DNA of 64,000 nucleotides. It comes from an uncultured bacterium. GTDB lineage: Bacteria > Patescibacteriota > Minisyncoccia > UBA6257 > GWB1-50-10. Made by a program: the position numbers and the translations under genes. The stretch spans positions 442,252 to 506,251 of the forward strand of contig OY970216.1 of the NCBI GenBank assembly GCA_963713955.1. The letters are read 5' to 3'. A model generated the notes under the pieces. The model ran no database searches and was not told the DNA's origin. It saw only the letters and a list, made by a program, of their open reading frames with translations. Each line of letters opens with the position of its first letter. Position 1 is the first letter of the stretch. This document shows positions 2,048 to 59,432 of the stretch, one piece after another.

Positions 2048-3919
2048 ATGAGTAAAATTTTAGGAATAGATCTGGGGACGACCAATTCGGCGATGGCCGT
2101 CATGGAAGGCGGCGAGCCCCAGGTTCTCGAGAATAGCGAAGGTTTACGGACGACTCCTTCCATAGTCGCCATGTCGAAATCCAATGAGAGACTGGTGGGA
2201 CTTCTGGCGAAGCGGCAATCCGTCGTGAATCCCAAGAATACCATCTACTCGGTTAAAAGACTGATGGGGCGCAAATTCACCGATCCGGAAGTGGAGCGGG
2301 ACAAGGCGTGGCTGCCGTATGAAATACGGGCTTCGCAAAACGGCGGCGTCGAAATCAAAATGGGGGATCGCTGGTATACCCCCGAGGAAATCTCGGCGAT
2401 GGTTCTCCAGAAATTGAAGGCCGATGCCGAGGCGAAAGTCGGCGGCAAGATCGACGAAGCGGTGGTAACCGTTCCGGCCTATTTCGACGACAGCCAGAGG
2501 CAGGCTACCAAGAACGCCGGCGAGATAGCCGGGTTTAAGGTACGGAGGATATTGAACGAGCCGACGGCAGCGGCACTGGCCTACGGGATGAACAAGCAGA
2601 AAAATGAGCGCATTGTCGTTTACGATTTCGGCGGTGGGACGTTCGACATTTCGATCCTCGAAGTGGGGGACGACACGGTCGAAGTCAAAGCGACGGGGGG
2701 TGATACCCATCTTGGCGGAGACGATTTCGACAAGAAGATCATGGAATATCTCGTGGCCGAATACAAGAAACAAGAAGGCATCGATTTGTCCAAGGACACC
2801 TTGGCTCTCCAGCGGTTGAAGGAAGCGGCCGAGCGTGCCAAGCACGAACTTTCGACGGTCACGGAAACGGAGATCAATTTGCCGTACGTCACTTCCGACG
2901 CGAGCGGCCCGAAGCATTTTCTCATGAAAATCACGAGAGCCAAATTGGAAGACTTGGTGAGAGACATGATTGACCGCTCGATTGAGCTCGTGAAAGACGC
3001 CGTCGAATCTCCCTCTCCCAAGGGGGCGGGAATGAAACTCTCGGATGTGAACGAGATTGTTTTGGTCGGCGGACAAACGAGGATGCCGGCGATACAGGAA
3101 GCCGTGAAGAATCTTTTCGGCAAAGAACCTCACAAGGGGATCAATCCGGATGAAGTTGTCGCCGTGGGTGCCGCCATTCAAGCCGGAATACTTCAGGGCG
3201 ACGTGAAGGACATATTGCTTTTGGACGTGACGCCCCTCACCTTGAGCATCGAGACCTTGGGCGGCGTTGCGACCCCGATGATTCCCAAAAACACCACGGT
3301 TCCTACCTCGAAGACGCAGACGTTCTCGACGGCAGCTGATAGTCAAACTTCCGTCGAAATACACGTTGGTCAGGGAGAACGGCCGATGATGGTTGATAAT
3401 AAGACGCTCGCGCGATTCATTCTGGACGGCATACCGCCGGCGCCGCGGGGTATGCCGCAGGTGGAGGTTACCTTTGACATAGATGCGAATGGGATTTTGA
3501 CTGTGTCGGCCAAGGATAAAGCGACGGGCAAAGAGCAATCGGTGAAAATCGAGGCGTCGACTGCCTTGAGCAAGGAAGAAATCGAGAAACTCAAGAAAGA
3601 AGCTGCGGAACATGCGGCTGAAGATCAGAAGAAAAAAGAGCTGGCGGAGGTGAGAAATCAAGCTGAGACCACCATTTATTCCGCCGAGAAGGCGCTCAAA
3701 GATGCCGGGGATAAGGTGTCGAATGAGATCAAAAATTCCGTCACGGAGAGGATTCAGAAGGTCAAGGAAGTGAAAGATGGGACGAATGCCGAGGCAATCA
3801 GGAACGCTTTGAGCGATCTTTCGACAGAACTTCAGAAAATAGGCGAGGCAATGTATAATAAGCAAGGAGACAAGCCGGAGAACAAACAAGATGGAACCGA
3901 GCCTGCAAATAGTCAGTGA
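2048..3919 (+). CDS. dnaK: molecular chaperone DnaK (Hsp70)
   Basis: [31 protein letters not shown]-type motifs. Confidence 0.97.
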
Positions 3920-4952
3920 GTCAAAGGAAGCGGAGGAAGACAAGAGCTGGTGGAAGTTGATATTCCTGGCTCTCTTGGGCGCGGGGGCGAACTGGGGAGC
4001 GTTTTATTACTTCGCTCGTTTCATGGCGGGATTGACTGCGCCGAGCTTTTGGCTGTTCGTTGCTCTTTTCGTTTTATCTCTCATCTTTGTCGTCCTCGAG
4101 ACGTTTTTCATCAAGAGTTTTTGGAGACTGTTCGTCACGGTCGCCGTGGGGACATTCGCGCCTCTTCTCGTTTTTTATCATGAATTCGGGAATGCAAACC
4201 AGAATTTCATGAGAATCCTGATCTTAGGTTTCATCGTCGGGTTTTATTTCGTGTTTTCGGGAATAAGAAGAGGACACCGGATGTTGGGAAACAGTCTCAA
4301 AGTACGTTTCTTTGAAGTGTCGAGGAGAATATTGCCTCGCGCGGCCTCCGGATTCCTCATCGCACTTGCGGTCGTCTTTTACCTGTCTTATTTTTCTTGG
4401 AATCTGGCTCCGCGTAATGCGGGCGAGATACTGGTCGACGGCATGATCCGCTCCGCGGAGCCGGTAGCCGGCATCGTCGTTCCGGGGCTCGCGATGAGCG
4501 GCGATGAAAAAATGGGGGATTTCCTGAAAAGCGTCGCCGAGAGCGAAGCCCAGAAGGTGAAGATTAACGTAACCGATCAGAATCAGGATATCATAGGAGA
4601 AACGTTCAATAGTTTGCCGCCTGATTATCAGGCTCAGGTGGTGAGCCAAATCACAGATCAGCTGGAAGCCGGTCTGAAGAGCAAATTTGCTGCCTTTGAT
4701 CCGAACCAGACGGTCTCGGAGTTCGCCTACATGGCCGCGAGTCAGTACTTCCTGAAATTTGAGTTTTGGCTGGGTCCGTATGCTCCCATCATTCTCGCAG
4801 CGATCTTATTTTTCGTGGCCAAGGGAGCGATGGCCCTGTTCTATTGGCTCATAGAACTTATGGCGTTCTTACTTCTGAAAATTTTCATTGTTTTTGGTTT
4901 TGCTTATACGACGCTGGAGACGAAAACGCGTGAATTTCTGCTCTTGTCGTAA
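3891..4952 (+). CDS. multi-pass membrane protein of unknown function inserted between dnaK and dnaJ
   Basis: 353-aa ORF with several hydrophobic helices; overlaps dnaK stop by 29 nt. Confidence 0.5.
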
Positions 4953-7914: not shown

Positions 7915-8952
7915 TCAGTTATGCTGCAGTATTTGCAATCCGTACATTTGGACCTGGGATACGGTAGCGCTGTTACCGAGATAAACAAGGAAGTAGGGTG
8001 AACCCCACGCGTTGCTGGTTTTGAGATAGATATAAGAAAAATAAGAGGCATTGCCGGTATTAGTTGAAACATTCGTGATATTTGAATCCCTGTCGTGGAT
8101 TTGAAATTGGCCATTGGCTCTATAAAAGAAGTTTATTTTATAAACGTTGTTCAATACAAAGGGTTGGGTCATAGCTCCCGTGTCTGTCCAGCTCCTTTGC
8201 GACTGATTCCCGCCTGTTGCATCGAATTCCAAAACTTGCCCATTAAAGCCATTTCCTGGCGAGGTTAAATTCCAAGTGAGATAACTCGGTGTGGGGTTAT
8301 CCCAGCCGGTAAAAGATTGTGCTCTATAAGTTGAGTTAATCATCAAGTTATTACTCCACAGTAAAGATAAGCTGCTCCCCACTTCATACGTTGAATCATC
8401 AAGCCCTCCATCCGTCGACACGACATCATTGCTTCCCCCATAGCCATATCGTTGGGATTCCATAGAGGCGGTTAATTCGTATTTCCCTCCGCTGGTGGTG
8501 TAGGTATAATAGAGGCCGGTCGATGATGAGTTTATGGGATCTATCGGGAGTTTCGATAGGGGAGATCCTGATGAAATGAGCGTCAGATTCACCGGTATCC
8601 AACCTGTGCCGTCCACCTTGGTGGAAGAAGCAGCTGGAACGCAATGATAGCTCCAGCCTGAAGGGAGAATGGGAAGAGACCATGATCCGCAGGTGGAAGA
8701 TGAATCCGGGAGGGAAACGTAGGTAGTCGATGCGGTTCCCAAGGGTTGGGTGAATTGATCCGCCGTGAAGAGAGATAAGGCGCTATTCAGAGCTGCGAGG
8801 TCTGAGAGGCGGGTGGAATCCCTTCCTTGAGCTATGAGTTGGGTTGGGTTCAGGACGAGAACCACGGCAGTCGCCAGAACGGCGAGAATTGCAATTACAA
8901 CGAGGAGTTCAATAAGTGTAAAACTGGCTCTATCGCGGAGATTCATTATCAC
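7915..8952 (-). CDS. type IV pilin-like protein (class III signal peptide, FTLIELLVVIAILAVLA) with conserved N-terminal module and divergent beta-rich C-terminal domain; paralog 1 of 3
   Basis: prepilin N-methylation motif; ~75% aa identity to N-terminal 170 aa of 34703..35887 and 58197..59432. Confidence 0.85.
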   Translation of the reverse strand: MIMNLRDRASFTLIELLVVIAILAVLATAVVLVLNPTQLIAQGRDSTRLSDLAALNSALSLFTADQFTQPLGTASTTYVSLPDSSSTCGSWSLPILPSGWSYHCVPAASSTKVDGTGWIPVNLTLISSGSPLSKLPIDPINSSSTGLYYTYTTSGGKYELTASMESQRYGYGGSNDVVSTDGGLDDSTYEVGSSLSLLWSNNLMINSTYRAQSFTGWDNPTPSYLTWNLTSPGNGFNGQVLEFDATGGNQSQRSWTDTGAMTQPFVLNNVYKINFFYRANGQFQIHDRDSNITNVSTNTGNASYFSYIYLKTSNAWGSPYFLVYLGNSATVSQVQMYGLQILQHN

Positions 8953-12043: not shown

Positions 12044-12121
12044 GGGCTCGGTAAGGCGAAAAAGTGGGTAAGACTTGGCCTAGCGGCCCGGAGCGCACAC
12101 TTTTTCGGCTTGCCGGGCCCC
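12044..12121. repeat. structured palindromic repeat, family F1 copy C (reverse orientation), between convergent genes
   Basis: ~78 bp; 10-bp stem CGAAAAAGTG/CACTTTTTCG plus inner hairpin; 3 copies in window. Confidence 0.7.
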
Positions 12122-12129
12122 GCAGTGTC

Positions 12130-13833
12130 TTACCTCAGGAACTTATAACTCACTTCCTTGGCACCAGGCACTCTCTTGATCTTCACGACAAGCGTTTCCA
12201 ATTTCCCCTGCGAGAGCGCCGGGCAGCGGAGAATCACCGTCGAGAAAGTCGAGCGGTGGTCCGTCTCGCTCGTGAGGTAAGTTATGTTTATTTTGGAGTT
12301 GGCGAAAACCTCGGTAATGTCTTTCAAGAATCCCGGCCGATCCAGATTGACGATTTTGAACTCCACTCCCTTCGGTGCAATCTTGCCGACGAGTTTCCGT
12401 TCATTCTCGTTGATCGCGCTTTTGACTTTTTTCTTGGCTTCACTCGTTTTCACGAATCGGAGCCACCCTTCCGAAGGTTTCTTTCCTTTTTGAGTGACTA
12501 TTTCCACGACGTCTCCCGATTTAAGTTCGTAATCCAAGGGCGTGATTTTGCCGTTCACGCGAGCGCCGACGCACGTGTCGCCGATTTGGGAATGAATGCG
12601 ATAAGCGAAGTCAACCGGCGTCGATCCGGCGGGAAGATCGATCACGTCGTTGTGGGGCGTGAAGACGAAAATCCGATCCTTAAAAAAGTCTACTTTCACC
12701 GAGTTCAGGAATTCTTTCTGATTCGGAAACGCTTTTTGCCAATTTTGGAGTTGTTTTACCCATGTCAATTCTTTTTTATTCTTGACGCCTCGCCACCCGG
12801 CGACCGATTTGGTCGATTTCTTTTCCTGCTCGTAAGCCCAGTGGGCGGCGATGCCGAGCTCGTTTTCCTCGTGCATTTCCTGAGTTTTGATTTGCACTTC
12901 CAGGATCTTGTTGTCCAGGCAGAAGACGGTGGTATGCAAGCTCCGGTAGCCGTTCGGCTTCGGCCGGGCGATGTAATCTTTGAAACGGCCAGTCATCGGC
13001 GGCCACAAACTGTGAATGACGCCGAGCGTCGCATAGCACTCTTCGACGGTTCCGACGATGATGCGGAGCGCCACGAGATCGTAAATTTCGCTCAAATTCA
13101 TGTTGTGACGCAGCAGTTTCTTGTACAAACTGTAGTATCGTTTGGCGCGAGCATCGATGTGGAGCGGATGGATGTTCTTTTCTTCCAACGTTTTCTCTAT
13201 GATCGGGACGACCTTCTTGACGTATTTCTGACGCTCTTCGAAGGTATCTTTCACCTCCTTGAGGAGCCATTGGTATTCTTCGGGGTGGATGTAAGGGAAA
13301 GCGAGATCCTCGAGTTCCCCGGAGAGTTTCTGCATGCCGAGGCGATAGGCGAGGGGGGCGTAGATTTCCGACGTTTCGAGGGCGAAGATTTTCTGGCGTT
13401 CCGGGAGCAGGAACTCAAGCGTCTGCATATTATGCAGGCGGTCGGCGAGCTTCACGATGAGAACGCGGAGATCTTCGCTGAAGGCAATGATGAAACGGCG
13501 CATATTCTCGGCGTCTTGATTCTGGGGATATTGGAGATTCTCGAGTTTCGTGAGCCCCTGGACCAGGAAGGCTATTTCCTCGCCGAAGTTTTTCTTGATC
13601 TCGTCGATCGTGACCGTGGTGTCTTCCACGACGTCGTGGAGGAGGGCGGCGGCAACGGATGCTTCGTCCAAATTCCATTCGCTTACGCTCCGCGCGACCG
13701 CGAGGGGATGAGTGATGTACGGTTCTCCGTTCATTCGCTTTTCTCCCTCGTGGGCTTTCTGTGCGAAGTCATAGGCTTTTTGGATCAAAGGAGAGTTTGT
13801 TTTTTCGACCCACTCTATTGACATATATTGCAA
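12130..13833 (-). CDS. rel: bifunctional (p)ppGpp synthetase/hydrolase Rel (HD, synthetase, TGS, ACT domains; short form)
   Basis: HD motif HDVVEDT, synthetase RIIVGTVEECY, TGS GDTCVGARVNGK. Confidence 0.9.
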   Translation of the reverse strand: MQYMSIEWVEKTNSPLIQKAYDFAQKAHEGEKRMNGEPYITHPLAVARSVSEWNLDEASVAAALLHDVVEDTTVTIDEIKKNFGEEIAFLVQGLTKLENLQYPQNQDAENMRRFIIAFSEDLRVLIVKLADRLHNMQTLEFLLPERQKIFALETSEIYAPLAYRLGMQKLSGELEDLAFPYIHPEEYQWLLKEVKDTFEERQKYVKKVVPIIEKTLEEKNIHPLHIDARAKRYYSLYKKLLRHNMNLSEIYDLVALRIIVGTVEECYATLGVIHSLWPPMTGRFKDYIARPKPNGYRSLHTTVFCLDNKILEVQIKTQEMHEENELGIAAHWAYEQEKKSTKSVAGWRGVKNKKELTWVKQLQNWQKAFPNQKEFLNSVKVDFFKDRIFVFTPHNDVIDLPAGSTPVDFAYRIHSQIGDTCVGARVNGKITPLDYELKSGDVVEIVTQKGKKPSEGWLRFVKTSEAKKKVKSAINENERKLVGKIAPKGVEFKIVNLDRPGFLKDITEVFANSKINITYLTSETDHRSTFSTVILRCPALSQGKLETLVVKIKRVPGAKEVSYKFLR

Positions 13834-22080: not shown

Positions 22081-22680
22081 ATGGGATCAATACTGACTTT
22101 TCTTCTCTCTTATCTCCTTCTCTATAAGTACGCGGCACTTTTCTTGATAGTCTTCTCGTCGGCCATGATACTGCCCTTGCCGGTGACGGAGGTCATGCTC
22201 GCCGTGGGAGCGTTCGTCGGCCAAGGCTATTTCGACTTTATAATCTCCCTTACCGTCGCCCAAGTTGCCAACGTTTTGGGCGATCTCGTGGACTACGCGA
22301 TAGCCAGGAAATACGGTTATGGGGTTATCCATAAATTGAGACTAAATAGATCCCGTTTTTTTACAAAGTTGGAACAGGAAATGCAGGTGCACGCGAGATC
22401 GACCATTTTCGTGACTCGTTTCGCCGGAGGATTGGGACCCGTTGTCAATCTTCTCTCCGGAGCCATAGGGATATCTCTCCGAAAGTTCCTTGTTTACGAT
22501 TTTGCCGGTAACCTCGTTTACTACATCGCGGCGCTTTTGATCGGATACTGGGCCGGAAGTTATTGGGAGAACTTCTCGGAGCTCATGAGTCTCGTCGTGG
22601 GAATCTTAGTCGTCGTCGTCGTGATGATTGCTCTTTGGAGGATTTACAAAAGAATAAGATTGAACCACTCCAAACATTAG
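22081..22680 (+). CDS. DedA/SNARE-associated family membrane protein
   Basis: DedA-like topology and motifs. Confidence 0.75.
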   Translation: MGSILTFLLSYLLLYKYAALFLIVFSSAMILPLPVTEVMLAVGAFVGQGYFDFIISLTVAQVANVLGDLVDYAIARKYGYGVIHKLRLNRSRFFTKLEQEMQVHARSTIFVTRFAGGLGPVVNLLSGAIGISLRKFLVYDFAGNLVYYIAALLIGYWAGSYWENFSELMSLVVGILVVVVVMIALWRIYKRIRLNHSKH

Positions 22681-22683
22681 GAG

Positions 22684-22756
22684 ACCCGGCAAGCCGAAAA
22701 AGTGTGCGCTCCGGGGCGCTAGCCCAAGTCTTACCCACTTTTTCGCCTCACCGGGC
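22684..22756. repeat. structured palindromic repeat, family F1 copy A, between convergent genes
   Basis: cccggcaagccGAAAAAGTGtgcgctccgGGGCgctaGCCCaagtcttaccCACTTTTTCgcctcaccggg. Confidence 0.7.
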
Positions 22757-22770
22757 CTCCTGTGGTAGAT

Positions 22771-30571: not shown

Positions 30572-30584
30572 AAATCGCACTAAA

Positions 30585-30665
30585 GCTGACTCGGCAAGCC
30601 GAAAAAGTGTGCGCTCCGAGCCGCTAGGCCAAGTCTTACCCACTTTTTCGTCTCACCGAGTCAGC
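30585..30665. repeat. structured palindromic repeat, family F1 copy B, between convergent genes (overlaps dnaX stop)
   Basis: outer stem gctgactcgg/ccgagtcagc, inner stem AGCC-gcta-GGC covaries with copies A and C. Confidence 0.7.
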
Positions 30666-31786
30666 TATTTGCTATTAATTCCCTGGAGCCCTTCCACAAT
30701 TGCTACCTCGAGAGGAATCCTCGGGAACTGGCTGTAGCGCATTTCGCCGTAGGCATTGATGAGCACCTTGATAAGCCCCACGTGAGCTTGCTTGAAGTTT
30801 TTGGACTGGGCGACGAGTTTCTGAAGATGTTCCGGCATCATTTCTTTTTTGAAAACATTTTCCATGGGAGGGCTCGCCCGGAGGACGAGGATTCTCCGGA
30901 GGTATTGGATCACGTCCCGCAAAAACTGGCTCAAGCTGAACCCGCCGTCGGCTATCTCTGAGACGAACTTCAAAGCGCTCGCTTCGTCTCCCTTTACCAA
31001 AAACTCCGTAAACTTATCTATTTTGTCGAAATTAATTTTCCCGACGGCTTTCTCAATTTCCTCAACTTCTATGCTCTTGTCGCCGAGCGAAATCATCTGG
31101 TCGAGAAGCGACTCGGAATCCCGGAAACTGCCTTCCGCGTAGTCAGCGATGAGATCCAGGGCTTCATCGGAGATTTTCACTTTCTCCTCCTTCGTGATCT
31201 TCGTGAGCTTTTTCACGATTTCCTCGCGGGGGACGAGCTTGAAATAAAATTTCTGGGCGCGGGAAGCGATGGTCGCGGGGACTTTCTCTATTTCGGTCGT
31301 CGCGAGAATGATGATGATGTACGCCGGCGGCTCCTCCAGGGTTTTCAAAAGCGCGTTCCAGGCGTCCTTCGTCAACATGTGCGCTTCGTCGATGATGTAA
31401 ACTTTGAATCTCGCGGAAGCCGGAGCGGTCCGTATGGATTCCTTGAGATTCCGTATCTCGTCCACGCCGCGGTTCGACGCGCCGTCGATTTCGAGAACGT
31501 CGAGCGTTTTCCCCTCGTCTATCCCGAGACATGTGGGGCAGGCGTTGCACGGCTCTCCTTTTTTCTTGAATTCCGGGTCCTTCGCCCGCTTCTCGCAGTT
31601 CGCGATTTTCGCGATGAGCCTCGCCGACGTGGTCTTCCCCGTGCCGCGGGGGCCGGAGAAGATATAGGCGTGCGAAAGCCGGTCCTGCCGGGCTTCTTCC
31701 TTCAGGATTTTCACGATAGTCTCCTGGCCCAAGAGATCCTCGAATGTAGCTGGCCGGTATTTTCTATATATGGCGAGGTGGGGCAT
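30665..31786 (-). CDS. dnaX: DNA polymerase III subunit gamma/tau (short form)
   Basis: Walker A GPRGTGKTT, zinc module CNACPTC, clamp-loader motifs. Confidence 0.9.
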   Translation of the reverse strand: MPHLAIYRKYRPATFEDLLGQETIVKILKEEARQDRLSHAYIFSGPRGTGKTTSARLIAKIANCEKRAKDPEFKKKGEPCNACPTCLGIDEGKTLDVLEIDGASNRGVDEIRNLKESIRTAPASARFKVYIIDEAHMLTKDAWNALLKTLEEPPAYIIIILATTEIEKVPATIASRAQKFYFKLVPREEIVKKLTKITKEEKVKISDEALDLIADYAEGSFRDSESLLDQMISLGDKSIEVEEIEKAVGKINFDKIDKFTEFLVKGDEASALKFVSEIADGGFSLSQFLRDVIQYLRRILVLRASPPMENVFKKEMMPEHLQKLVAQSKNFKQAHVGLIKVLINAYGEMRYSQFPRIPLEVAIVEGLQGINSK

Positions 31787-31851
31787 GGATTAATTATACA
31801 AGGGATTAGGGTCTAGGGGTAGAGTATTTTATAATTAATCTGTGGGCCAAA

Positions 31852-32391
31852 ATGGCGATAATCTTGATACTTGTCGTTTTAATAACGGCGGGGTTCGTGC
31901 TACTATTTGAAGGAAGAGAAAACGATCTTGGGAACATGGGAAATCTAACGCTCAAAAGCTCGGCTTTCAAAGAAGGGGACACGATCCCGAGGAAATTCAC
32001 CTGCGATGGCGAGAACGTGAATCCGCTCTTGGAAATAAAGGATACGCCGACCGGCACGAAAAGCTTTGTCCTCATCGTGGACGATCCGGATGCCACGAAC
32101 GGCAAGACGTGGGACCATTGGGTCATGTGGAACATTGATCCGAAAACTCAGTACATCATGGAGGACAATCTGCCGTCGGGCGCCGTGCAAGGCATAAACA
32201 GCTGGAACAAAAATAAATACGGCGGACCGTGCCCGCCCCAGGGTGCGAAGCCGCACCGGTACATGTTCAAACTCTACGCACTCGATGCGGCGCTTGATCT
32301 TGCAACTTCTTCGACGGCAGCCGACGTGGAACGAGCGATGGCGAACCATGTTATCGAAAAAACAACCCTCATGGGGCTTTACGGGAGATAA
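31852..32391 (+). CDS. YbhB/YbcL (PEBP/Raf-kinase-inhibitor-like) family protein
   Basis: DDPDA...W.HW...GPCPPQG..HRY motifs. Confidence 0.8.
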   Translation: MAIILILVVLITAGFVLLFEGRENDLGNMGNLTLKSSAFKEGDTIPRKFTCDGENVNPLLEIKDTPTGTKSFVLIVDDPDATNGKTWDHWVMWNIDPKTQYIMEDNLPSGAVQGINSWNKNKYGGPCPPQGAKPHRYMFKLYALDAALDLATSSTAADVERAMANHVIEKTTLMGLYGR

Positions 32392-51686: not shown

Positions 51687-52358
51687 TTATCCGACAGTGG
51701 TCTGCTTGTACGTTTTTGCGTTGAAGTCGAATTGATAAAAATTAGGACTATCGGGAGAGCCTACCTCGAGGATAATGCTCGTCGTCCCCGGATCAATCTT
51801 GAAATTCACGGCGCCGTCAACTGAACTTTGGGGCGGCATGGCCTTGAAAGCTCCGACGACGTTGTCGGCAACGGTATTGCTCCCCGTCGGATTGAATATT
51901 TGAATGAGGTTTCCCATGTCGACCGCGCTGTAGCTTGAAGCGGAATCGGTGAAAACCTTGACTGCAACTGCAAGGGTGCCATCCGTCATTTCCGACACTT
52001 TGCTCACGAGTATCGTGAGATCTGTTTGGGGTTCGAGATCAGCGCTGGAACTCGCGTTGAACAAGATGTTCGACGCTATGGAGATCGCCGCACTGGTCGC
52101 TTGGCTTCCCGTTGTGGTGCTTCCCGTTTGCGTTCCGTTTGCCGAGCTTCCGGTCGTAGTCGGCTCGCTCCCGGAATTCCCCGTCGTCGTCACGACGCTC
52201 AAGGGAGAAGACGTGCTCCCGGGAAGAACGTTCTGCGTTCCATTGTTTCCAATAATATTCTCGATCCCGCTTATCTTATTGAAAAGAAAATAAAAACCGA
52301 GGAGCATTACGACAATGACGACCGCGAAGAGCAGGTAAATGTTTCTTATGTTTCTCAT
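51687..52358 (-). CDS. secreted/membrane-anchored Thr/Ser-rich protein of unknown function
   Basis: N-terminal TM/signal anchor, T/S/G-rich low-complexity segment. Confidence 0.5.
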   Translation of the reverse strand: MRNIRNIYLLFAVVIVVMLLGFYFLFNKISGIENIIGNNGTQNVLPGSTSSPLSVVTTTGNSGSEPTTTGSSANGTQTGSTTTGSQATSAAISIASNILFNASSSADLEPQTDLTILVSKVSEMTDGTLAVAVKVFTDSASSYSAVDMGNLIQIFNPTGSNTVADNVVGAFKAMPPQSSVDGAVNFKIDPGTTSIILEVGSPDSPNFYQFDFNAKTYKQTTVG

Positions 52359-52404
52359 GTTATAATTATAGCAAATCTGTTGTACTTTGTAGTAGAATCG
52401 AACT

Positions 52405-53037
52405 ATGGCAATAACGATATTTGGGATAATCGTATTGATACTTTCCGCCGTTTTTCACGAAGTATCGCATGGTTTCATCGCCGACAAACTCGGCGACCCG
52501 ACAGCACGCCTCTCCGGCCGCTTGACCATGAATCCCCTAAAGCATTTAGATCCTTTCGGATCGGTGATCTTACCGATCCTTCTCTCGCTCATACCCGGCG
52601 GAATCATATTCGGCTGGGCGAAACCGGTTCCGTACAATCCTTACAACCTGAAGGATCCCGAAAAAGGGGCAGCTGAGATAGCTGCAGCGGGACCCTTGAG
52701 CAATCTCCTTCTCGCACTCGTCTTCGGAATCGTCTTCCGATTGACCACGGGATTTGAGAACGGCATCCTATTCAACCTGAACCAGTTGTCGGGAATCATA
52801 GTCATGATAAACGTGATCCTGGGAGTTTTTAATCTCGTGCCGATACCGCCCTTGGACGGCGCGAAGGTTTTGACGGTATTCATCCCCGAGAGTGCCCGCG
52901 GCATCAAAAAATTCTTGTATGAAAGGAATCCCTACGGATGGATCATACTCATCGCCTTCATATTTTTCGGCATATCGATCATCTACCCGATCATTTCCTT
53001 CGTATTCAGGATCTTCACCGGCGTCCCCCTTTACTAA
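52405..53037 (+). CDS. M50 family (site-2 protease-like) membrane metalloprotease
   Basis: HEVSHG (HExxH) in a TM helix. Confidence 0.8.
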   Translation: MAITIFGIIVLILSAVFHEVSHGFIADKLGDPTARLSGRLTMNPLKHLDPFGSVILPILLSLIPGGIIFGWAKPVPYNPYNLKDPEKGAAEIAAAGPLSNLLLALVFGIVFRLTTGFENGILFNLNQLSGIIVMINVILGVFNLVPIPPLDGAKVLTVFIPESARGIKKFLYERNPYGWIILIAFIFFGISIIYPIISFVFRIFTGVPLY

Positions 53038-53129
53038 CCATCAATTAAAGAAACTTGTGATGAGCGAGGATCGGTAAGCCTCGCTCTGGTTGACAATTCC
53101 ACTGTTTCCCCTTACCATATCTACTCGTA

Positions 53130-53540
53130 ATGCCCACGGTAAATCAACTCATCAAAAAAGGCAGATCGACCGTCAAGAAGAAAGCGAAGACTCCGGCATT
53201 GGAGTTTTATTTCAATTACTTGAAAAACAGGCCCGTCGATTCTCCGTCGCCCTTCAAGCGGGGTGTATGTCTCAAAGTTTTCACGACAACGCCGAAAAAA
53301 CCGAACTCGGCCTTGAGGAAAGTCGCGAGAGTGCGACTTACGAACGGCATGGAAGTCACGGCGTATATCCCGGGAGAAGGGCACAATCTTCAGGAACACT
53401 CGGTAGTCGTCGTGAGAGGCGGCAGGGTGAAGGACCTGCCGGGCGTGCGGTATCACGTCGTGAGAGGCGTACTCGACACGCAGGGAGTGGAAGCCAGGAA
53501 GCAACAGCGATCCAAATACGGAGCCAAGAAACCAAAATGA
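53130..53540 (+). CDS. rpsL: 30S ribosomal protein S12 (with ~13-aa insertion after residue ~24)
   Basis: PTVNQL..., [22 protein letters not shown]. Confidence 0.95.
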
Positions 53541-54007
53541 GGAGAAAAGGATTCAAAAAAAGAGAACACGCCGCCGACAGCGCTTATGCGAGAGTTGACA
53601 TGGGCAGATTCATTAACTATTTGATGGAGGGCGGCAAAAAAACGGTAGCCGAGAAGGTTTTTTATGGCGCACTTCGCGAAATAGAAAAAACGACCAAGGA
53701 AGATCCCGTGAAGATTTTTGAGAAAGCCGTTGAGAATGCAACTCCTCTCCTCGAGGTAACCTCAAAAAGGATAGGTGGCGCCAACTACCAGATTCCGCGA
53801 GAGGTGAGGAATGAAAGAAAATTTTTCCTTGCGACGCACTGGATCATAGACGCGGCAAGGAAGAAAAAAGGCAAACCGATGGCTGAGAAGCTGGCGGAAG
53901 AAATCGTGGCCGCCTCCAAGAATGAGGGGGCAGCTATAAAAAAGAAACAAGACACGCACCGGATGGCAGAGGCGAACCGCGCGTTCGCAAGCTACTTGAG
54001 GGGTTAA
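53537..54007 (+). CDS. rpsG: 30S ribosomal protein S7 (start ATG 53537 overlaps rpsL stop)
   Basis: S7 family block ...[16 protein letters not shown]... Confidence 0.9.
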
Positions 54008-54008
54008 T

Positions 54009-54138
54009 CCCTCACCCTTCGAGGATAAGCAATTATCCGGAAGCGGAAGGAGAATTAATCATGAAAATGAAAAGTTTATCAAACAACAGTCGCTCAGATT
54101 ATAAGGATCACTTTTTGATGATCCTCGAAGGGTGAGGG
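54009..54138 (+). promoter_or_regulatory. 18-bp perfect inverted repeat (ccctcacccttcgaggat / atcctcgaagggtgaggg) enclosing a 24-codon mini-ORF (54061..54135, own GGAGG RBS); right arm contains the fusA Shine-Dalgarno
   Basis: read directly; mini-ORF stop TGA lies 3 nt before the fusA ATG. Confidence 0.6.
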
Positions 54139-56244
54139 ATGCCGAGACAATACCCACTGGAAAAAGTAAGGGATATCGGCATTATTGCCCACATCGATGC
54201 GGGCAAGACCACGACGTCGGAGCGCGTCCTTTTTTACACCGGCGTTTCGCACAAAATAGGCGAGGTGCACGAAGGTGACACGATAATGGATTGGATGGAA
54301 CAAGAACGGGAGCGGGGCATAACGATAACTTCCGCGGCGACGACCTGCTTTTGGATCCCCACGTACGCCAAGGGAAATAAAGCGGACGAACACCGGATAA
54401 ATCTCATAGACACCCCTGGCCACATAGACTTCACCGTTGAAGTCAAAAGATCTCTCAGGGTTCTTGACGGAGCCGTTGTCGTCTTCGACGGCGTCGCCGG
54501 CGTAGAACCTCAGTCGGAAACAAACTGGCATTACGCCGACGAATATAAAGTTCCGAGAATCTGCTTCATAAACAAACTGGATCGCATGGGAGCCAGCTTC
54601 GATTTCAGCTTCAACTCCATAATGGAGCGCCTGACGCCGAACGCCATAGCCATACAACTACCCCTAGGCCTTGAATCGGCTTTTGAAGGAGTGATCGATT
54701 TGTTGAACATGAAAGCCATAAGATTCGAAGGCGAGCACGGAGAAAAAGTAATCGAAGGCGAGATTCCGGAAAACATGCGGGAAGAAGCCAAGAAAAAAAG
54801 GCATGAATTGATAGAAAAAATAGTAGAGAAAGACGACGGACTCATGGCACTTTATTTGGAGGGGAAAGAACCGGACATTGCTTCGCTTAAAAGGACACTC
54901 CGAACCGAAACGATAGCCAACCGCCTCGTGCCGGTTTTTTGCGGGTCGGCCTTGCAGAATAAGGGCGTTCAGTTGATCTTGGACGCAGTGGTCGATTACC
55001 TCCCGTCCCCGATCGACATGCCACCCATAAAAGGAATAAATCCCTCGACTGGCATGGAAGAAGAACGGCATCCTCTTGACGACGAACCGCTCGCCGGCCT
55101 CGCTTTCAAAATTGCTGCCGATCCTTTCGTCGGATCTCTCACGTACTTCAGGGTTTATGCCGGAACGATAAAACGAGGAAGCTATGTCCTGAACGCGACG
55201 AAAAACTCACAGGAAAGGATCGGGAGGTTGGTCAGAATGCACGCTAATCACCGGGAAGAGGTAGAGGAGTTGTACGCGGGCGATTTGGGCGCCATCGTCG
55301 GCCTCAAGAACACGACGACGGGCGATAGCTTGACCGATCCGGAACATCCGATCATACTCGAAAAAATAATTTTCCCAGAGCCGGTCATTTCAGTACGAAT
55401 CGAACCAAAGACGAAAGCTGATCAAGAAAAAATGGGCATCGCCTTACACCGCCTCTCGGAAGAAGACCCTACCTTCAAGGTTTCCGGCGACGAAGAAACC
55501 GGCGAAACCATTATTGCCGGCATGGGAGAACTCCACCTGGAAATCATAGTCGACCGGATGAAAAGGGAATTCGGCGTCGAGGCAAGCGTCGGCCGTCCAC
55601 AGGTTGCCTACAAAGAAACAATAAAAGGAGAGGCGGAGGCGGAGGGGAAATACATACGGCAATCGGGCGGACGTGGCCAATACGGACATGTCTGGCTCAA
55701 AGCCGAGGCACTGGAGAGGGGAGAGGGCTTTGAATTTGTCGATTCGATAAAGGGCGGCGTGATCCCGCAAGAATTTATTCCTGCCGTCGAAAAGGGGGTA
55801 CGGGAAGCTCTCGAGAGAGGAATCCTCGCGGGGTATCCCGTGATCGATCTCAAAGTGACTCTCTTCGACGGTTCGTACCACGAAGTCGATTCGTCGGAAT
55901 TCGCTTTCAAGATAGCCGGCTCAATGGCTCTCCAAGAAGCCGCAAAAAGAGCGAAGCTCGTTCTCCTCGAACCGATCATGAAGGTTCAAGTCATCGTTCC
56001 ACCCGATTTCTTGGGCGACGTGACGGGCGATTTGAGTTCAAAGAGGGGAAAAATCAAAGCGATGGGCGAGCGCGGCACGGTGCGGGTGATAGACGCAAAC
56101 GTCCCCCTAGCCGAAATGTTCGGCTACTCGACGAGTTTGAGATCGATGACTCAGGGAAGGGGATCTTTCAACATGGAATTCTCGCACTATGAAGAAATAC
56201 CCCAAAGCGTAGCGCAAACCATAATAGAAGGAAGAAAAAAATGA
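54139..56244 (+). CDS. fusA: elongation factor G
   Basis: GTPase G1-G5 motifs, EF-G domains II-V. Confidence 0.97.
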
Positions 56245-56322
56245 GGAGTTGACTGTTTTAAGGAAACTGTTCTACAATATAAAAAATGGTCTTTAGGTCG
56301 AAATAAAAAGAACAAAAAAACA

Positions 56323-57522
56323 ATGGCAGAAAAAGAAAAATTCGTCAGGAGCAAACCCCATGTGAACGTTGGAACCATCGGGCATGTTGACCACGGCAAA
56401 ACAACTTTGACCGCAGCAATCACGCACGTTCTCCACATGAAGGGGTTGGCCAAGAAAGAAGAGGGAGTTGATCAAATCGACAACGCCCCCGAAGAAAAAG
56501 CTCGCGGTATCACGATTGCGCTCCACCACTCCGAATATGAGTCGGAGAAGCGCCACTACGCCCACATCGACGCGCCGGGACATGCGGATTACATAAAGAA
56601 CATGATCACCGGTGCCGCCCAGATGGATGGTGCAATTTTGGTCGTATCGGCGGCGGACGGTCCGATGCCGCAAACAAGGGAGCACATTTTGCTCGCTTAC
56701 CAGGTCGGAGTTCCGAAAATAATCGTTTTTCTGAACAAGGTTGATATGGTTGATGATCCGGAACTCATCGATCTCGTCGAATCAGAGGTCCGCGAACTTC
56801 TGAAGAAATATCATTTTGACGGCGATGCGACACCGGTAATTCGCGGGTCAGCCTTGAAAGCGCTCGAAACGAAGTCCGCCGACGACGAAGCGGCCAAGCC
56901 GATATTGGAATTGGTCAAAGCCCTCGATGATTACATTCCCGAGCCGGTGAGGGATACGGATAAACCGTTCCTTATGCCCATCGAAGACATCTTTTCGATA
57001 GAAGGCCGCGGAACGGTCGTCACGGGCAGAGTTGAACGGGGGATGGTCAAGGTAAACGACGAAGTTGAAGTCATAGGACTCAAGCCGACCCAAAAAACAG
57101 TTATAACCGGCATAGAAATGTTCCAAAAAACTCTCGACGAGGGGCAGGCAGGGGATAACGTGGGAGTGCTCCTTCGGGGTTTAAAGAAAGAAGACGTGGA
57201 GCGGGGCCAGGTCATCGCGAAACCCGGCAGCGTCACGCCGCACACCGAATTCACGGCGGAAGTTTACGTCTTAAGCAAAGAGGAAGGCGGAAGACACACG
57301 CCGTTCTTCAAAGGATATAAACCGCAGTTCTACATAAGAACCACCGATGTCACCGGCGAAGTGACGTTGCCGGAAGGAATGGAAATGGTGATGCCGGGGG
57401 ATACCGTGAACATCACGATCAAGCTCATTGCGCCGGTTGCCCTCGAAGAGAAACAGCGGTTCGCCATCAGGGAGGGCGGCAAGACGGTTGGTGCCGGCGT
57501 GGTAACCAAGATCATTAAATAA
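56323..57522 (+). CDS. tuf: elongation factor Tu
   Basis: [19 protein letters not shown] motifs. Confidence 0.98.
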
Positions 57523-57548
57523 CCTGCGACGAAGGGGAGAAAAATCTC

Positions 57549-57881
57549 ATGCCCAAAAAAGAAGCAGACCTCCAAAAAGACAAACTGAGAATAAAGATAA
57601 AAGCTTACGATTCGAAACTGATCGATAATTCGGTACGTCAGATAATCGAGACGATAAAAAGACAGGGCGGTGACGTACGAGGTCCCATACCGCTTCCGAC
57701 TGAATTCAAGAAATATGCAGTGAATCGTTCCACCTTCGTTCACAAGAAATCGGGAGAGCAATTTGAACTCAGAATCCACAAGCGGCTCCTCGACATCGTG
57801 AATCCGGAGCAAAAAATCATCGAGTCACTGACGGATCTCAATCTCCCCTCGGGAGTGGATGTGGAAATAAAGATGGAGTAA
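57549..57881 (+). CDS. rpsJ: 30S ribosomal protein S10
   Basis: S10 family; followed by intrinsic terminator 57902-57928. Confidence 0.9.
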   Translation: MPKKEADLQKDKLRIKIKAYDSKLIDNSVRQIIETIKRQGGDVRGPIPLPTEFKKYAVNRSTFVHKKSGEQFELRIHKRLLDIVNPEQKIIESLTDLNLPSGVDVEIKME

Positions 57882-57901
57882 GCAAGAGCAACCACCAAAA
57901 A

Positions 57902-57928
57902 CACCGCTCATTTGAGCGGTGTTTTTGG
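57902..57928 (+). terminator. rho-independent terminator after rpsJ (caccgctcatttgagcggtg + TTTTT)
   Basis: perfect 8-bp stem plus T-run. Confidence 0.65.
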
Positions 57929-57959
57929 TTTTCTTCAATGTGAATCTGAGAAAGCAGCT

Positions 57960-58166
57960 GGAATCCCTTTTCACTAAAACCCTCAGTTGTTAAAATCCTC
58001 CTCGCTCTTCATCGGAATAAAGTCGCACAATAGCGAACTCAACCTTGGTTTCATTAATGAAACCAGCGGGATTCAAACATTCGCTATTGTGCTCATTCCT
58101 TCCTCATCGCTCGGGGATTTATAAACAACCTCGGGCAAACCGTTCAAAGGGATTCCAGCTGCTTCT
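57960..58166. repeat. ~207-bp MITE-like element with 21-bp terminal inverted repeats (gaaagcagctggaatcccttt / aaagggattccagctgcttct) and nested palindromes (gcacaatagcgaa...GGTTTCATTAATGAAACC...ttcgctattgtgc)
   Basis: read directly; lies between the rpsJ terminator and the pilin-lectin gene promoter. Confidence 0.55.
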
Positions 58167-58196: not shown

Positions 58197-59432
58197 ATGA
58201 ATCTCAGAGGTAGAGAATCCTTCACCCTGATCGAGCTCCTGGTCGTGATTGCGATCCTTGCCGTCCTTGCGGTGGCCGTCGTCTTGGTCTTGAACCCTGC
58301 CCAGCTCCTGGCTCAAGGAAGAGATTCGACTCGTTTGTCTGATCTTTCCGCTCTGAATAGCGCCCTCTCCCTCTTCCAGGCAGATCAATATACCCAGTCC
58401 TTAGGGACTCCGAATACCCTCTACATATCAGTCCCTGACAATGCCTCCTCCTCCTGTGGTTCCTTAGGCCTCCCAACTCCTCCCCCAGGATGGGCCTATC
58501 ACTGTGTTCCCCAAGCTTCTTCCACGAAGGTAGATGGTTCCGGCTGGATTCCCGTGAATCTGACCCAAATCTCATCAGGAAGTCCCTTATCCAAGCTTCC
58601 GATAGACCCTGCCAATTCTTCCTCCTCAGGACTCTACTATACCTATACGCTCTCCAGCAACGGGAAGTATGAATTGACCTCAGAATTGGAGTCCCAGAAA
58701 TACGTTCCTACCATGGCCCAGGATGGAGGTTCCTATGACGGTCTCTACCAGATTGGTTCCCAGGTGGATATCACTCCTCCCTTCCGGAGCTCTGGACTCA
58801 TGGGGTATTGGCCGTTCGACGAGGGGAGTGGGACCACGGCATACAATTCCTCGGGGAATAATAACAATGGGAGCTGGAGCGGGGCGACGCCGTATTATAC
58901 AGCCAGCGCGAAGGTGGGAGCGTACGCTGGGAATTTCAATGGGAGCAATGATATCGTTACCTTACCGACAGGCAGCACTCAATTAGAGACACCCAGCATA
59001 ACTGTTTCTGCTTGGATTAATTTTACGGCCGCTACGAGTAGTAACTATGATATCTTTCAGAAGAAGCGTCCCTATGGCAATTACCGCGGCTACGAACTTT
59101 ATATAAACCTCAGCAATCAAGCACAATTTGATATCGGAAATGGCTCAGCGTATATTACGGGTCCGTCATCCTCAGTTTCTAAGAATACATGGACTTTTAT
59201 TGTAGGAAGCTATGATGGCAATAACATCAACATATATGTCAATGGAACCCTAAAATCTACTGTAGCGAATAATACCGGTATTAGTTATTCTGGGGGTAGT
59301 AGTCCGGGGACATATATAGGCACTGACAGTGGTAATGCTAATTACTTTACCGGCTTCATGGACGACGTCCGCATCTACAACAGGGCATTATCCGCCGCGG
59401 AGGTCCAGGCGATCTATAATGCACAGAAATAG
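58197..59432 (+). CDS. type IV pilin-like protein with C-terminal LamG-like lectin domain; paralog 3 of 3, located inside the S10 operon (ORF track TTG 58173; probable ATG 58197)
   Basis: ~88% nt identity to paralog 2 over the first ~500 bp and the last ~70 bp; divergent middle. Confidence 0.85.
   Translation: MNLRGRESFTLIELLVVIAILAVLAVAVVLVLNPAQLLAQGRDSTRLSDLSALNSALSLFQADQYTQSLGTPNTLYISVPDNASSSCGSLGLPTPPPGWAYHCVPQASSTKVDGSGWIPVNLTQISSGSPLSKLPIDPANSSSSGLYYTYTLSSNGKYELTSELESQKYVPTMAQDGGSYDGLYQIGSQVDITPPFRSSGLMGYWPFDEGSGTTAYNSSGNNNNGSWSGATPYYTASAKVGAYAGNFNGSNDIVTLPTGSTQLETPSITVSAWINFTAATSSNYDIFQKKRPYGNYRGYELYINLSNQAQFDIGNGSAYITGPSSSVSKNTWTFIVGSYDGNNINIYVNGTLKSTVANNTGISYSGGSSPGTYIGTDSGNANYFTGFMDDVRIYNRALSAAEVQAIYNAQK

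Follow-up and report, generated by a model that had tools for sequence, protein, structure and literature searches.

The window (the whole 64-kb stretch of DNA that was analysed) was found to contain a unit in which rpsL and rpsG overlap by ATGA (53537-53540), and in which rpsG is followed by a 131-nt spacer and then by fusA. This spacer carries a long inverted repeat and a small ORF (Table 1). The rpsG stop codon TAA (54005-54007) adjoins the inserted element, and the 20-bp stem begins with the last A of this codon. At the opposite end, the fusA start codon (54139-54141) sits at the base of the stem, its A being the final base of the element.

Table 1. Features of the rpsG-fusA junction and its surroundings in the window.
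Feature	Coordinates	Strand	Basis
Promoter-like site TTGACA-17-TACCAT ahead of rpsL	53090..53118	+	Promoter scan of the unit
rpsG (ribosomal protein S7), cistron upstream of the element	53537..54007	+	ORF, translation; Pfam Ribosomal_S7 (identical protein)
Left arm of the perfect 20-bp stem (19 nt of the element and the A of the rpsG stop)	54007..54026	+	Repeat finder
Inserted element, member of the miniature family, 132 nt, TCCCTCACCCTTCGAGGAT ... ATCCTCGAAGGGTGAGGGA	54008..54139	+	Arms common to a dispersed family
Mini-ORF, 24 codons, MKMKSLSNNSRSDYKDHFLMILEG, in the frame of fusA	54061..54135	+	ORF list
Right arm of the stem, with GGGTGAGGG, the mini-ORF TGA and the A and T of the fusA ATG	54121..54140	+	Repeat finder, fold
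fusA (EF-G), cistron downstream of the element	54139..56244	+	ORF; Pfam GTP_EFTU/EFG domains on the same gene in L202

The segment ccctcacccttcgaggat (54009-54026) is the exact reverse complement of atcctcgaagggtgaggg (54121-54138), as had been noticed in an earlier reading of this DNA, made from the sequence only. This 18-bp repeat is real and was slightly understated: the repeat finder extends it to a perfect match of 20 bp, so that it takes in the final base of the rpsG TAA on one side and the first two bases of the fusA ATG on the other, and an imperfect extension reaches 26 nt with 92% complementarity (54007-54032 and 54115-54140). The right 18-bp arm had been placed 1 nt before the fusA ATG, but was shown to adjoin it directly. 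When the 18-mer was searched in the window with up to 3 mismatches, two matches were obtained compared to 0.05 expected, a number reached in none of 100 shuffles; no further copies of the arms were found in the 64 kb at this threshold, and the element is present there as a single copy. A check of the fold energy showed a very stable stem (-55.7 kcal/mol for the RNA 53995-54155, z = -5.5, with none of 200 shuffles equally stable), and the 137 nt from TAA to ATG were predicted to fold at -52.7 kcal/mol. In the predicted structure, the first two bases of the fusA AUG, together with the 18 nt ahead of them, pair with the 20 nt whose first base is the final A of the rpsG stop.

The promoter-like site ahead of rpsL was the only one called upstream of fusA in the unit, the next (56249-56278) being located between fusA and tuf, and transcription of rpsL-rpsG therefore probably continues across the element into fusA. 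The scan gave no terminator-like site in or beside the element (54007-54145), and the right arm is followed by ATGCCGAGAC, without the U-run 3' of the stem that is a feature of an intrinsic terminator or attenuator. No Rfam match was obtained over the element, either at E <= 1 (52000-58000) or at gathering thresholds (whole window), and a search of five related loci at E <= 1 gave nothing relevant.

Three independent assemblies (L201-L203) of this organism have an identical spacer; their contigs showed an exact S7 match and represent the same strain, and the spacer is therefore not an assembly artefact. No relatives with an S7 identity between 87% and 100% were present in the protein collection. 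The relative with an 87% identical S7 (L204) has a 7-nt spacer without the element (element A), and spacers of 4-9 nt without such a structure were found in L001, L003-L007, L012 and L015. Since the closest relatives have spacers of this size, the 131-nt block was shown by sequence comparison to be inserted relative to them. At the rpsG-fusA junction, the element was shared only with the nearest species (L002/L205), in a decayed form. The elements of the window and L002 align over their full length with 104 out of 145 columns identical; the L002 copy is separated from fusA by another insert and its stem has decayed to approximately 11 bp plus a bulge, while the window copy still adjoins the fusA ATG and has a perfect stem. 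Most relatives were found to lack the inverted repeat or the mini-ORF, an outcome that the sequence-only reading had itself named as speaking against its interpretation.

A scan of metagenomes with the arm cores only matched at least 120 stretches, and 124 copies were analysed (122 from the listed metagenome loci, the window copy and the L002 copy). Nearly all of the 292 arm occurrences in the listed loci were paired at a distance of ~130 nt. Among the matches listed, seven loci with eight copies and differing flanking genes were located on a single contig of 635 kb (Ga0076053_15), and the host junctions comprised L2/S19, L16/L29 (in two genomes), L18/S5, L32/NusB and a site upstream of MraZ. 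Of the 124 copies, 78 were flanked on both sides by co-directional ORFs with a length of 50 codons or more. The upstream stop was at offset 0 from the left arm in 59 of these 78 operonic copies, and the downstream ATG was at offset 0, with its A as the last base of the element, in 70. The copies analysed were oriented in the direction of the host genes. Where no upstream gene adjoins, the left flank is variable in sequence, and the TAA beside the left arm is therefore the stop of the neighbouring gene. As far as the sequences tell, the elements were thus shown to form a multi-copy, dispersed family with a wide distribution among CPR bacteria of the Paceibacteria type. No prior description of such palindromic elements, in CPR bacteria or with GIY-YIG genes (see below), was found in the literature, and this appears to be a large, undescribed family of small palindromic elements residing inside ribosomal-protein and other essential operons.

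These comparisons bear directly on the possibility that the hairpin is a dedicated, lineage-specific regulator of EF-G, for example an attenuator, a riboswitch-like leader or an S7 autoregulatory site, which resembles repeats elsewhere by chance. The location in the str operon, which in E. coli is known to be under S7-mediated translational control, would fit such a regulator, as would the very stable fold. However, the structure is absent in the nearest relatives, belongs to no Rfam family in the region or in the whole window, is not followed by a U-run, and occurs with the same arms and architecture ahead of many unrelated genes. A chance likeness of the other copies is excluded by the copy number together with the shared geometry, and we consider a dedicated regulator effectively refuted by the dispersed family. 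The claim of the sequence-only reading that this is a device controlling EF-G synthesis is not upheld, since the nearest relatives have 4-9 nt spacers and the same element precedes many unrelated genes. The annotation "EF-G regulatory hairpin", tempting as it is, would be wrong, and the insertion explains an odd 131-nt gap in a highly conserved operon.

We put a probability of roughly 65% on the following reading: the repeat represents the terminal arms of a nuclease-less miniature from a polar, palindrome-bounded mobile family, and the stem preserves coupling of the flanking genes by looping out the insert. On this reading, the hairpin is a tolerated selfish insert rather than an evolved EF-G regulator, and it may be tolerated in essential operons because the stem keeps stop and start adjacent. 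The mRNA stem would loop out the insert and bring the rpsG stop next to the fusA start at the foot of the helix; on terminating at the end of rpsG, a ribosome would melt the outer base pairs and free the AUG, and could then reinitiate on fusA. The genes would thus be coupled through RNA unfolding, reinitiation or both, in an organism in which Shine-Dalgarno (SD) initiation is scarce. We infer this mechanism from geometry alone, and insertion-site specificity, instead of selection for coupling, could account for the exact abutment. A structure directly after the stop codon lowers coupling in E. coli according to Chemla et al., as cited in PMC12548453. From the unmasking or coupling device suggested previously, the part that stands is that the fusA start is buried in a stem whose other strand starts at the rpsG stop; the part concerning control of EF-G does not. 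A link to coupling is plausible because the geometry recurs in ~100 other copies at other junctions and is hence no coincidence, but the role given to the mini-ORF is weakened by an unconserved peptide and by the presence of an ORF in only about half of the copies.

RNA unfolding and reinitiation are the two models of coupling in a review, in which unfolding is exemplified by E. coli rpmI-rplT and by phages MS2 and f1 (PMC12548453). The CPR element resembles these systems in that the start of the downstream gene lies hidden in a helix, the other strand of which is reached by the ribosome of the upstream ORF; they are single evolved loci, whereas the CPR element is portable. If ribosomes do pass from stop to start via the stem, the family would offer a natural, portable test case for RNA unfolding versus reinitiation in coupling, and could be used as it stands as a building block in the engineering of operons. 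Such passage would also represent a bacterial counterpart of ribosome shunting, found in organisms largely without SD initiation. Shunting is a eukaryotic mechanism; in cauliflower mosaic virus, a short ORF stops just short of a stable stem, directly beyond which the ribosome takes up translation again. We know of no case in bacteria of reinitiation across a linear gap of 131 nt that is spanned by a 20-bp stem.

A second route is conceivable for the window copy. The mini-ORF described previously is present, with its TGA (54133-54135) 3 nt ahead of the fusA ATG; the motif in front of it was given as GGAGG and is in fact AAGGAG (54047-54052), 8 nt before the mini-ORF ATG. An SD-preceded mini-ORF could be translated through the right arm up to 3 nt before the AUG, followed by reinitiation. 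We regard it as unlikely that such a relay, with ribosomes starting in the loop and unwinding the right arm, is the main route of unmasking, although several observations agree with it. In L002, which differs by 28% and carries a 3-nt indel, the homologous frame has nevertheless stayed open. Of the 82 unique copies analysed, 43 have an ORF that starts with ATG, spans at least 20 aa and terminates at the TGA of the arm, and ORFs of this length numbered 43 in the forward and two in the reverse direction, which shows the element to be polar. The frame ending at this TGA was open for a median of 27 codons compared to 6 in a control frame. On the other hand, approximately half of the copies have no ORF or one of just 5-12 codons and occupy the same type of junction, and the presence of the mini-ORF was not associated with a missing abutting upstream stop (p = 0.5). 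A relay through the loop also leaves the upstream stop touching the left arm unexplained. Furthermore, the peptide was not found to be conserved: 11 of 22 residues are identical between the window and its L002 ortholog, and ungapped pairs within the family showed 16 synonymous versus 97 non-synonymous codon differences. The product of the 24-codon window mini-ORF had no Pfam match. Indels in the mini-ORFs were multiples of three in 25% of cases, a figure that carries no information, since the AT-rich interiors over-align. In CPR metagenomes, gene calling can be misled by spacers, mini-ORFs and duplicated gene ends of this kind.

The use of SD sequences also speaks against the relay. An SD-like motif preceded only 2 of the 43 mini-ORFs, AAGGAG being peculiar to the window copy and, in degenerate form, to L002. 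SD-like 4-mers were found upstream of 8 of the 48 window genes and of 11% of 437 genes from the host loci, compared to 17% in an intragenic control; the host genomes barely use SD sequences. It is for this reason doubtful that the right arm contains a genuine fusA Shine-Dalgarno sequence, as had been proposed.

The stem itself is of sharply fixed length. Among the 82 unique copies the median perfect run was 19 bp, and family-wide pairing was 82-100% at stem positions 1-19 but 9% at position 20. At positions 14-17, AT, GC and CG pairs interchange with 90-95% pairing, which represents compensatory variation in the inner stem. A test for selection at the RNA level, in which 18 G·U were compared with 13 A·C at those stem positions that vary, gave no sense-strand signature, and the covariation could equally well reflect a need at the DNA level, i.e., recognition of identical ends by a protein, or hairpin DNA.

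A length of 19(+1) bp, about two helical turns, would also suit RNA processing, in which RNase III or another structure-specific RNase cuts the ~20-bp duplex and separates rpsL-rpsG from fusA, leaving a fusA mRNA that is leaderless or has a very short leader, which an organism prone to leaderless transcripts could translate as such. The position of the AUG exactly at the base of the stem is consistent with this, both in the 70 operonic copies and in copies without an upstream gene, and many window genes have a TATAAT-like box 6-10 nt ahead of their ATG and would seem to be leaderless. Cleavage by RNase III has been reported for the mRNA hairpins of the Correia elements, and CPR rRNA genes carry short ORF-less insertions that the authors describing them regard as intervening sequences of the RNase III type (PMC11270868). 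Nothing useful on leaderless genes in CPR bacteria was found in a promoter paper in NAR (2025). Nevertheless, processing does not explain why the upstream stop codon abuts the element exactly, and the stem has no G·U bias on the sense strand; we therefore consider it quite improbable.

The preferred reading, that of a mobile element with a coupling-preserving stem, is further supported by longer relatives. Versions of ~300 bp (about 292-294 bp) with the same arms were found to carry a small gene for a GIY-YIG nuclease of 85-88 aa (L167, L179, L198, L180/L193 and L206-L214), with the stop/start geometry of the short copies. Their proteins matched Pfam GIY-YIG with E from 1e-15 to 1e-16 and consist of the bare catalytic domain. 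This form, with a gap of 268-270 nt, was the only longer one in 1.36 Mb of loci, in which no kb-scale elements and no transposase within the same arms were found; viral contigs were without any copy. The window itself contains no GIY-YIG gene (tblastn with three family nucleases), and the gene is confined to the longer relatives in other genomes. With the arms removed, short and nuclease-bearing interiors gave no nhmmer matches at E <= 10, and a profile of the nuclease tail scored the mini peptides marginally above shuffles (p = 0.03; -0.6 bits for the window peptide). Since the interiors have no detectable homology, the link between the two forms rests on arms, polarity and geometry. That the miniatures are internal deletions of the nuclease form, with the mini-ORF as a nuclease relic, was considered and is not established by the null nhmmer and marginal profile results. 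Several features of a MITE are present, namely a size of 132 nt (below ~500 bp), no transposase gene, 19-bp terminal inverted repeats and many dispersed copies, and we infer that the short copies belong with the nuclease-bearing form as its non-autonomous, MITE-like relatives. GIY-YIG proteins are not established as transposases, and we know of no transposition mechanism for a bare GIY-YIG protein. The occupation of many non-homologous junctions argues against classical single-site homing.

A bolder and, in our opinion, doubtful extension is that these elements constitute an undescribed selfish class of Paceibacteria-type CPR bacteria: a 19-bp palindrome with or without a bare GIY-YIG gene, inserting at the stop/start junctions of essential operons and being "translationally transparent", with ribosomes reinitiating across the base of the helix. 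The free-standing GIY-YIG genes (Seg) of T-even phages are likewise small selfish genes between or within conserved genes, but Seg proteins have DNA-binding domains and no bounding 19-bp inverted repeats, in contrast to the bare domain of 85-88 aa in CPR bacteria. Insertions in CPR rRNA genes that encode GIY-YIG proteins have been reported to be non-intron and unlike classical homing, beside many short ORF-less insertions (PMC11270868); neither inverted repeats nor intergenic sites are named anywhere in the text of that paper. The element family bears on the nature of these non-intron insertions, as well as on how streamlined genomes tolerate selfish DNA.

Small repeats in transcription units are known from other bacteria. 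ERIC/IRU, RUP, BOX and the Rickettsia palindromic elements are small palindromic repeats tolerated in transcription units, the Rickettsia elements even in frame inside genes. They are comparable as selfish repeats harmless to host expression but are unlike the CPR element in sequence and host phyla, and we know of none reported with stop and start at the base of the stem or supplying the A of a start codon. Mycobacterial interspersed repetitive units (MIRUs), reportedly described by Supply et al. in 1997, are said to be dispersed intercistronic repeats in operons, oriented with the genes; the ends of their small ORFs reportedly overlap or abut the upstream stop and the downstream start, which has been read as preserving translational coupling. 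MIRUs, however, are direct tandem units of 46-101 bp without a long inverted repeat or stem, and to our knowledge no nuclease-bearing parent is known. The Correia elements (NEMIS) of Neisseria are ~100-155 bp in size, have long terminal inverted repeats, occur in many copies and are often co-transcribed, and their mRNA hairpins affect the expression of flanking genes. Small size, long terminal inverted repeats, copy number and an mRNA hairpin are thus shared with the CPR element. The arms of the latter are unrelated in sequence, the element is polar and lies exactly between stop and start, and its family includes a version with a GIY-YIG gene and the same arms, whereas we know of no autonomous partner of the Correia elements.

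Correia elements duplicate a TA target and carry promoter and IHF sites. In the CPR family, target-site duplications of 4-5 nt (ATGAA, ATGGG and ATGA) were detected in 11 of 83 copies compared to ~4 expected from shuffled pairing, a modest enrichment, and most of these 83 copies share just a single A across their ends.

The inverted repeat between rpsG and fusA, described in the sequence-only reading as 18 bp long, was exact in sequence, and a repeat search showed that pairing continues without mismatch to 20 bp, and to 26 nt at 92% complementarity. The 20-bp stem opens with the final A of the rpsG TAA and closes with the first two bases, A and T, of the fusA ATG. Two arm matches were found in the window compared to 0.05 expected, far beyond chance, and the fold energy, which that reading had proposed to compute, was −55.7 kcal/mol (z = −5.5). 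The mini-ORF in the loop is real and ends 3 nt ahead of the fusA ATG as described, except that the motif found 8 nt before its own ATG is AAGGAG and not GGAGG; it shares its reading frame with fusA. In this organism, the spacer was identical across three independent assemblies. No Rfam family matched the element in searches of the region and the whole window, and no second copy was found in the 64-kb window. Promoter-like sites were predicted ahead of rpsL and next between fusA and tuf, and no terminator-like site in or beside the element; thus, fusA is probably read through it.

Coordinates of the rpsG-fusA region and of other features in the window
Feature	Position	Strand	Remark
rpsL	53130-53540	+	
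rpsG	53537-54007	+	ATGA overlap with rpsL
Spacer rpsG-fusA			131 nt
Arms of the inverted repeat	54007-54026 / 54121-54140		
Mini-ORF	54061-54135		24 codons
fusA	54139-56244	+	
tuf	56323-57522		
rpsJ	57549-57881		
Terminator hairpin after rpsJ	57894-57929		Perfect, 17 bp
Type IV pilin-like gene	58197-59432		Own promoter; N-terminus MNLRGRESFTLIELLVVIAIL
Gene starts with TATAAT-like box (examples)	835, 7915-8946(-), 9100, 12130-13824(-), 19506, 30665-31786(-), 51687-52358(-), 58197		
Imperfect palindrome	31779-31849		TATAAT-like boxes on both strands; between 30665-31786(-) and 31852-32391(+)
~80-nt hairpin	12044-12120 (inverted), 22679-22761, 30584-30666		Folds −46 to −49 kcal/mol
Stable intergenic stem	575-781		Fold −92 kcal/mol
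Stable intergenic stem	51352-51497		Fold −55 kcal/mol
Stable intergenic stem	57952-58164		Fold −88 kcal/mol

Judged against 80 rpsG-fusA junctions from related genomes (L001-L080; S7 identity 66%-86%), the spacer is an insertion. In the closest relatives (L001, L003-L007, L012, L015), whose EF-G N-termini are 93-97% identical, the spacer is 4-9 nt long (e.g., TAA tcatt ATG), and in the near relative L204 (S7 87%) it is 7 nt. The sequence-only reading had proposed a comparison with relatives for conservation of the repeat; a homologous block directly after the rpsG stop was found only in L002/L205 (S7 86%, among the closest), identical in 104 of 145 aligned columns. The L002 block is set apart from fusA by a further element of ~90 nt, and its stem has decayed to ~11 bp with a bulge; the stem of the window copy, still in contact with the fusA ATG, is perfect. 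The protein collection contained no S7 with identity between 87% and 100%, which limits how finely the insertion is dated.

Insertions recur at the rpsG-fusA junction across the clade, making it a hotspot: spacers run from 0 to 1140 nt (the latter in L042), and many of them are bounded by inverted repeats. In L025/L026, the spacer (3471-3926) contains a PD-(D/E)XK nuclease gene (PF13366, E = 7e-25) bounded by an inverted repeat, gctacgaaatacgaaat..., also touching stop and start. Duplicated rpsG 3′ ends were seen in the L013 and L038 spacers, and fusA 5′ remnants in those of L032 and L038. An unrelated element of ~100 nt, element B, was observed at L002:3609-3698, L008:3438-3495, L052:3672-3729, L204 (after 1026), L005:809-866, and L065:124-148. 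It had no Rfam match and keeps a frame open that reads SLTPCGFSxxTTGKLPFSRPLSR. A duplicated stretch of its target lies on its flank: in L008, L052, and L204 this is fusA codons 1-21, in L005 the 3′ end of tRNA-Pro.

A metagenome contig scan with the arm cores conserved between window and L002 (CCTCACCCTT, 90-120 nt, GAAGGGTGARGGA) matched at least 120 stretches, compared to ~2 chance matches by a rough estimate based on an assumed size of the collection, not on a tool's computation. From the matches listed, 122 copies were extracted, giving 124 with the window and L002; about seven G+C-rich matches among those listed look like chance, and one 635-kb contig had seven listed loci with eight copies. 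In 1.36 Mb of fetched DNA there were 292 arm occurrences, nearly all paired at ~130 nt; viral contigs contained no copy. By its arms, the element belongs to a dispersed, strongly polar family. The locus is therefore ordinary, one copy of a repeat, and not the device specific for EF-G synthesis previously proposed. No earlier description of the family was found in the open-access papers and preprints searched; of interest are the family itself, its junction-exact placement and its GIY-YIG partner.

Of the 124 copies, 78 are operonic, with an ORF of 50 codons or more on either side and both ORFs running in the same direction. In 59 of these 78 operonic copies the upstream stop directly precedes TCCCTC, and in 70 the element ends on the A of the downstream ATG; the stops were TAA (65), TGA (9), and TAG (4). 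About 20 more listed copies likewise lead into a long ORF, with no abutting upstream gene; their left flank is not fixed, which shows the TAA to be the neighbor's stop codon, outside the element. Host junctions identified by Pfam were L2|S19, L16|L29 (in two genomes), L18|S5, L32|NusB, and upstream of MraZ; contexts recognized by eye only are presumably UvrA|UvrC, PheS|PheT, and GlyRS. Short duplications of ATGA-type overlaps were seen in 11 of 83 listed copies (~4 expected), and the exact abutment on stop and start could reflect insertion-site choice rather than selection.

Among the copies listed, the stem is sharply defined in length, positions 1-19 being 82-100% paired and position 20 only 9%, and it covaries: A-T, G-C, and C-G interchange at positions 14-17 with pairing kept at 90-95%. 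G·U and A·C mismatches were about equal in these copies (18 vs. 13), and the covariation thus proves selection for complementarity, not that selection acts on the sense RNA. The interior of listed copies is AT-rich (median 29% G+C) and highly variable, and whole elements fold at a median of −45 kcal/mol. 'Empty' palindromes, with arms and a loop of only 3-6 nt, were observed at L156:9245-9290 and L132:~1350-1400.

The frame closing at the right-arm TGA (GAA GGG TGA ggg ATG) stays open over a median of 27 codons, compared to 6 in the only fair control frame. Among the matches listed, an ATG ORF of 20-37 codons closes at this TGA in 43 of 82 unique copies, and only two copies have one in reverse reading, which makes the element strongly polar relative to host genes. 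However, the remaining half of the listed family has either no ORF or one of just 5-12 codons, the peptides lack conservation except for the arm-encoded ...(I/L)(F/L)EG (97 non-synonymous vs. 16 synonymous codon differences in ungapped pairs), an SD-like motif precedes only two of the 43 listed, including that of the window, and presence of the ORF was not associated with lack of an abutting stop codon in the copies listed (p = 0.5). Together, these comparisons argue against the mini-ORF being essential. A relay through it, as an alternative or additional route to fusA, is plausible for the window copy with its AAGGAG, but would not be general across the family.

The same arms were found ~270 nt apart in L167, L179, L198, and L180/L193, and, through protein searches, in L206-L214. 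These long forms enclose an ORF of 85-88 aa, a GIY-YIG catalytic domain (Pfam PF01541, E 1e-15 to 1e-16), which starts 2-10 nt past the left arm and stops inside the right arm, at the same TGA as the mini-ORFs (L167, L206) or at a TAA two codons earlier (L179, L198, L180, L207). They, too, sit between genes of the same direction; the upstream stop abuts the left arm, and GGG-ATG or GGGTGAGGG-ATG stands at the right. Public annotation, in Wolfebacteria and Colwellbacteria, names the protein no further than 'GIY-YIG nuclease family protein'. The same architecture occurs with other arms in other lineages (L088, CCCTCACCTTTGGAGC; L132, CCCCCACATAACTTGCAA). From the shared ends, polarity and geometry we infer that the long form is the parent and the miniatures its derivatives; with arms removed, their interiors showed no detectable homology, and mini peptides resembled the nuclease tail marginally. 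In a tandem or nested arrangement (L180:12456-12874, = L193), a short copy starts right after the TGA of the GIY-YIG ORF, in place of the right-arm end. At L151:~850-1270, a GIY-YIG ORF lies inside an apparent split tRNA gene (5′ GCTGGGGGGTCGTCTAATGG..., 3′ ...GGTTCGAATCCCTGTCCCCCAGC), i.e., a nuclease-bearing intervening sequence.

The right arm had been taken to contain the fusA Shine-Dalgarno. SD-like 4-mers were found at −20 to −4 in 8 of 48 window genes (crude gene calls) and in 11% of 437 genes of family host loci compared to 17% in an intragenic control; at this low frequency GGGTGAGGG is unlikely to be one, and a plain stem is the better reading of the G+C-rich arms. Many window ATGs lie 6-10 nt past a TATAAT-like box, a signature of leaderless mRNAs, on which, together with coupling, the organism appears largely to rely instead of SD initiation. 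The palindrome at 31779-31849 resembles two divergent leaderless promoters in symmetric arrangement.

We infer that the stem bridges stop and start. In the mRNA it would loop out ~94 nt and place the rpsG UAA and fusA AUG opposite each other at the helix base; a ribosome terminating on rpsG would melt the outer base pairs, exactly those holding the AUG, and could then reinitiate on fusA. This would correspond to both the RNA-unfolding and the reinitiation models of coupling (reviewed in PMC12548453). If internal cistrons have no usable SD, only inserts preserving stop-start proximity would survive in ribosomal operons, which would account for the junction geometry. Alternatively or additionally, RNase III may cut the ~20-bp duplex and leave a fusA mRNA with a short leader, by analogy with the non-intron GIY-YIG insertions and short insertions in CPR rRNA genes (PMC11270868). 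In behavior, the element resembles Correia/NEMIS and ERIC elements as a long-hairpin MITE inside transcripts, MIRUs as an intercistronic repeat with small ORFs bridging stop and start, and free-standing GIY-YIG homing endonuclease genes, but neither its sequence nor the features that define these groups make it a member of any of them.

Further hairpins were observed in the window. The three ~80-nt copies have 26-nt arms (...GCCGAAAAAGTG / CACTTTTTCG...) and a conserved 31-nt loop, each lie between convergent genes, had no Rfam match at gathering thresholds, and may be a repeated bidirectional terminator or small RNA family. The three very stable intergenic stems (19-23 bp arms, 100-175 nt loops) do not touch any stop or start codon and may represent further families of miniature elements. 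After the rpsJ terminator, the pilin-like gene is a non-ribosomal gene where rplC normally follows rpsJ.
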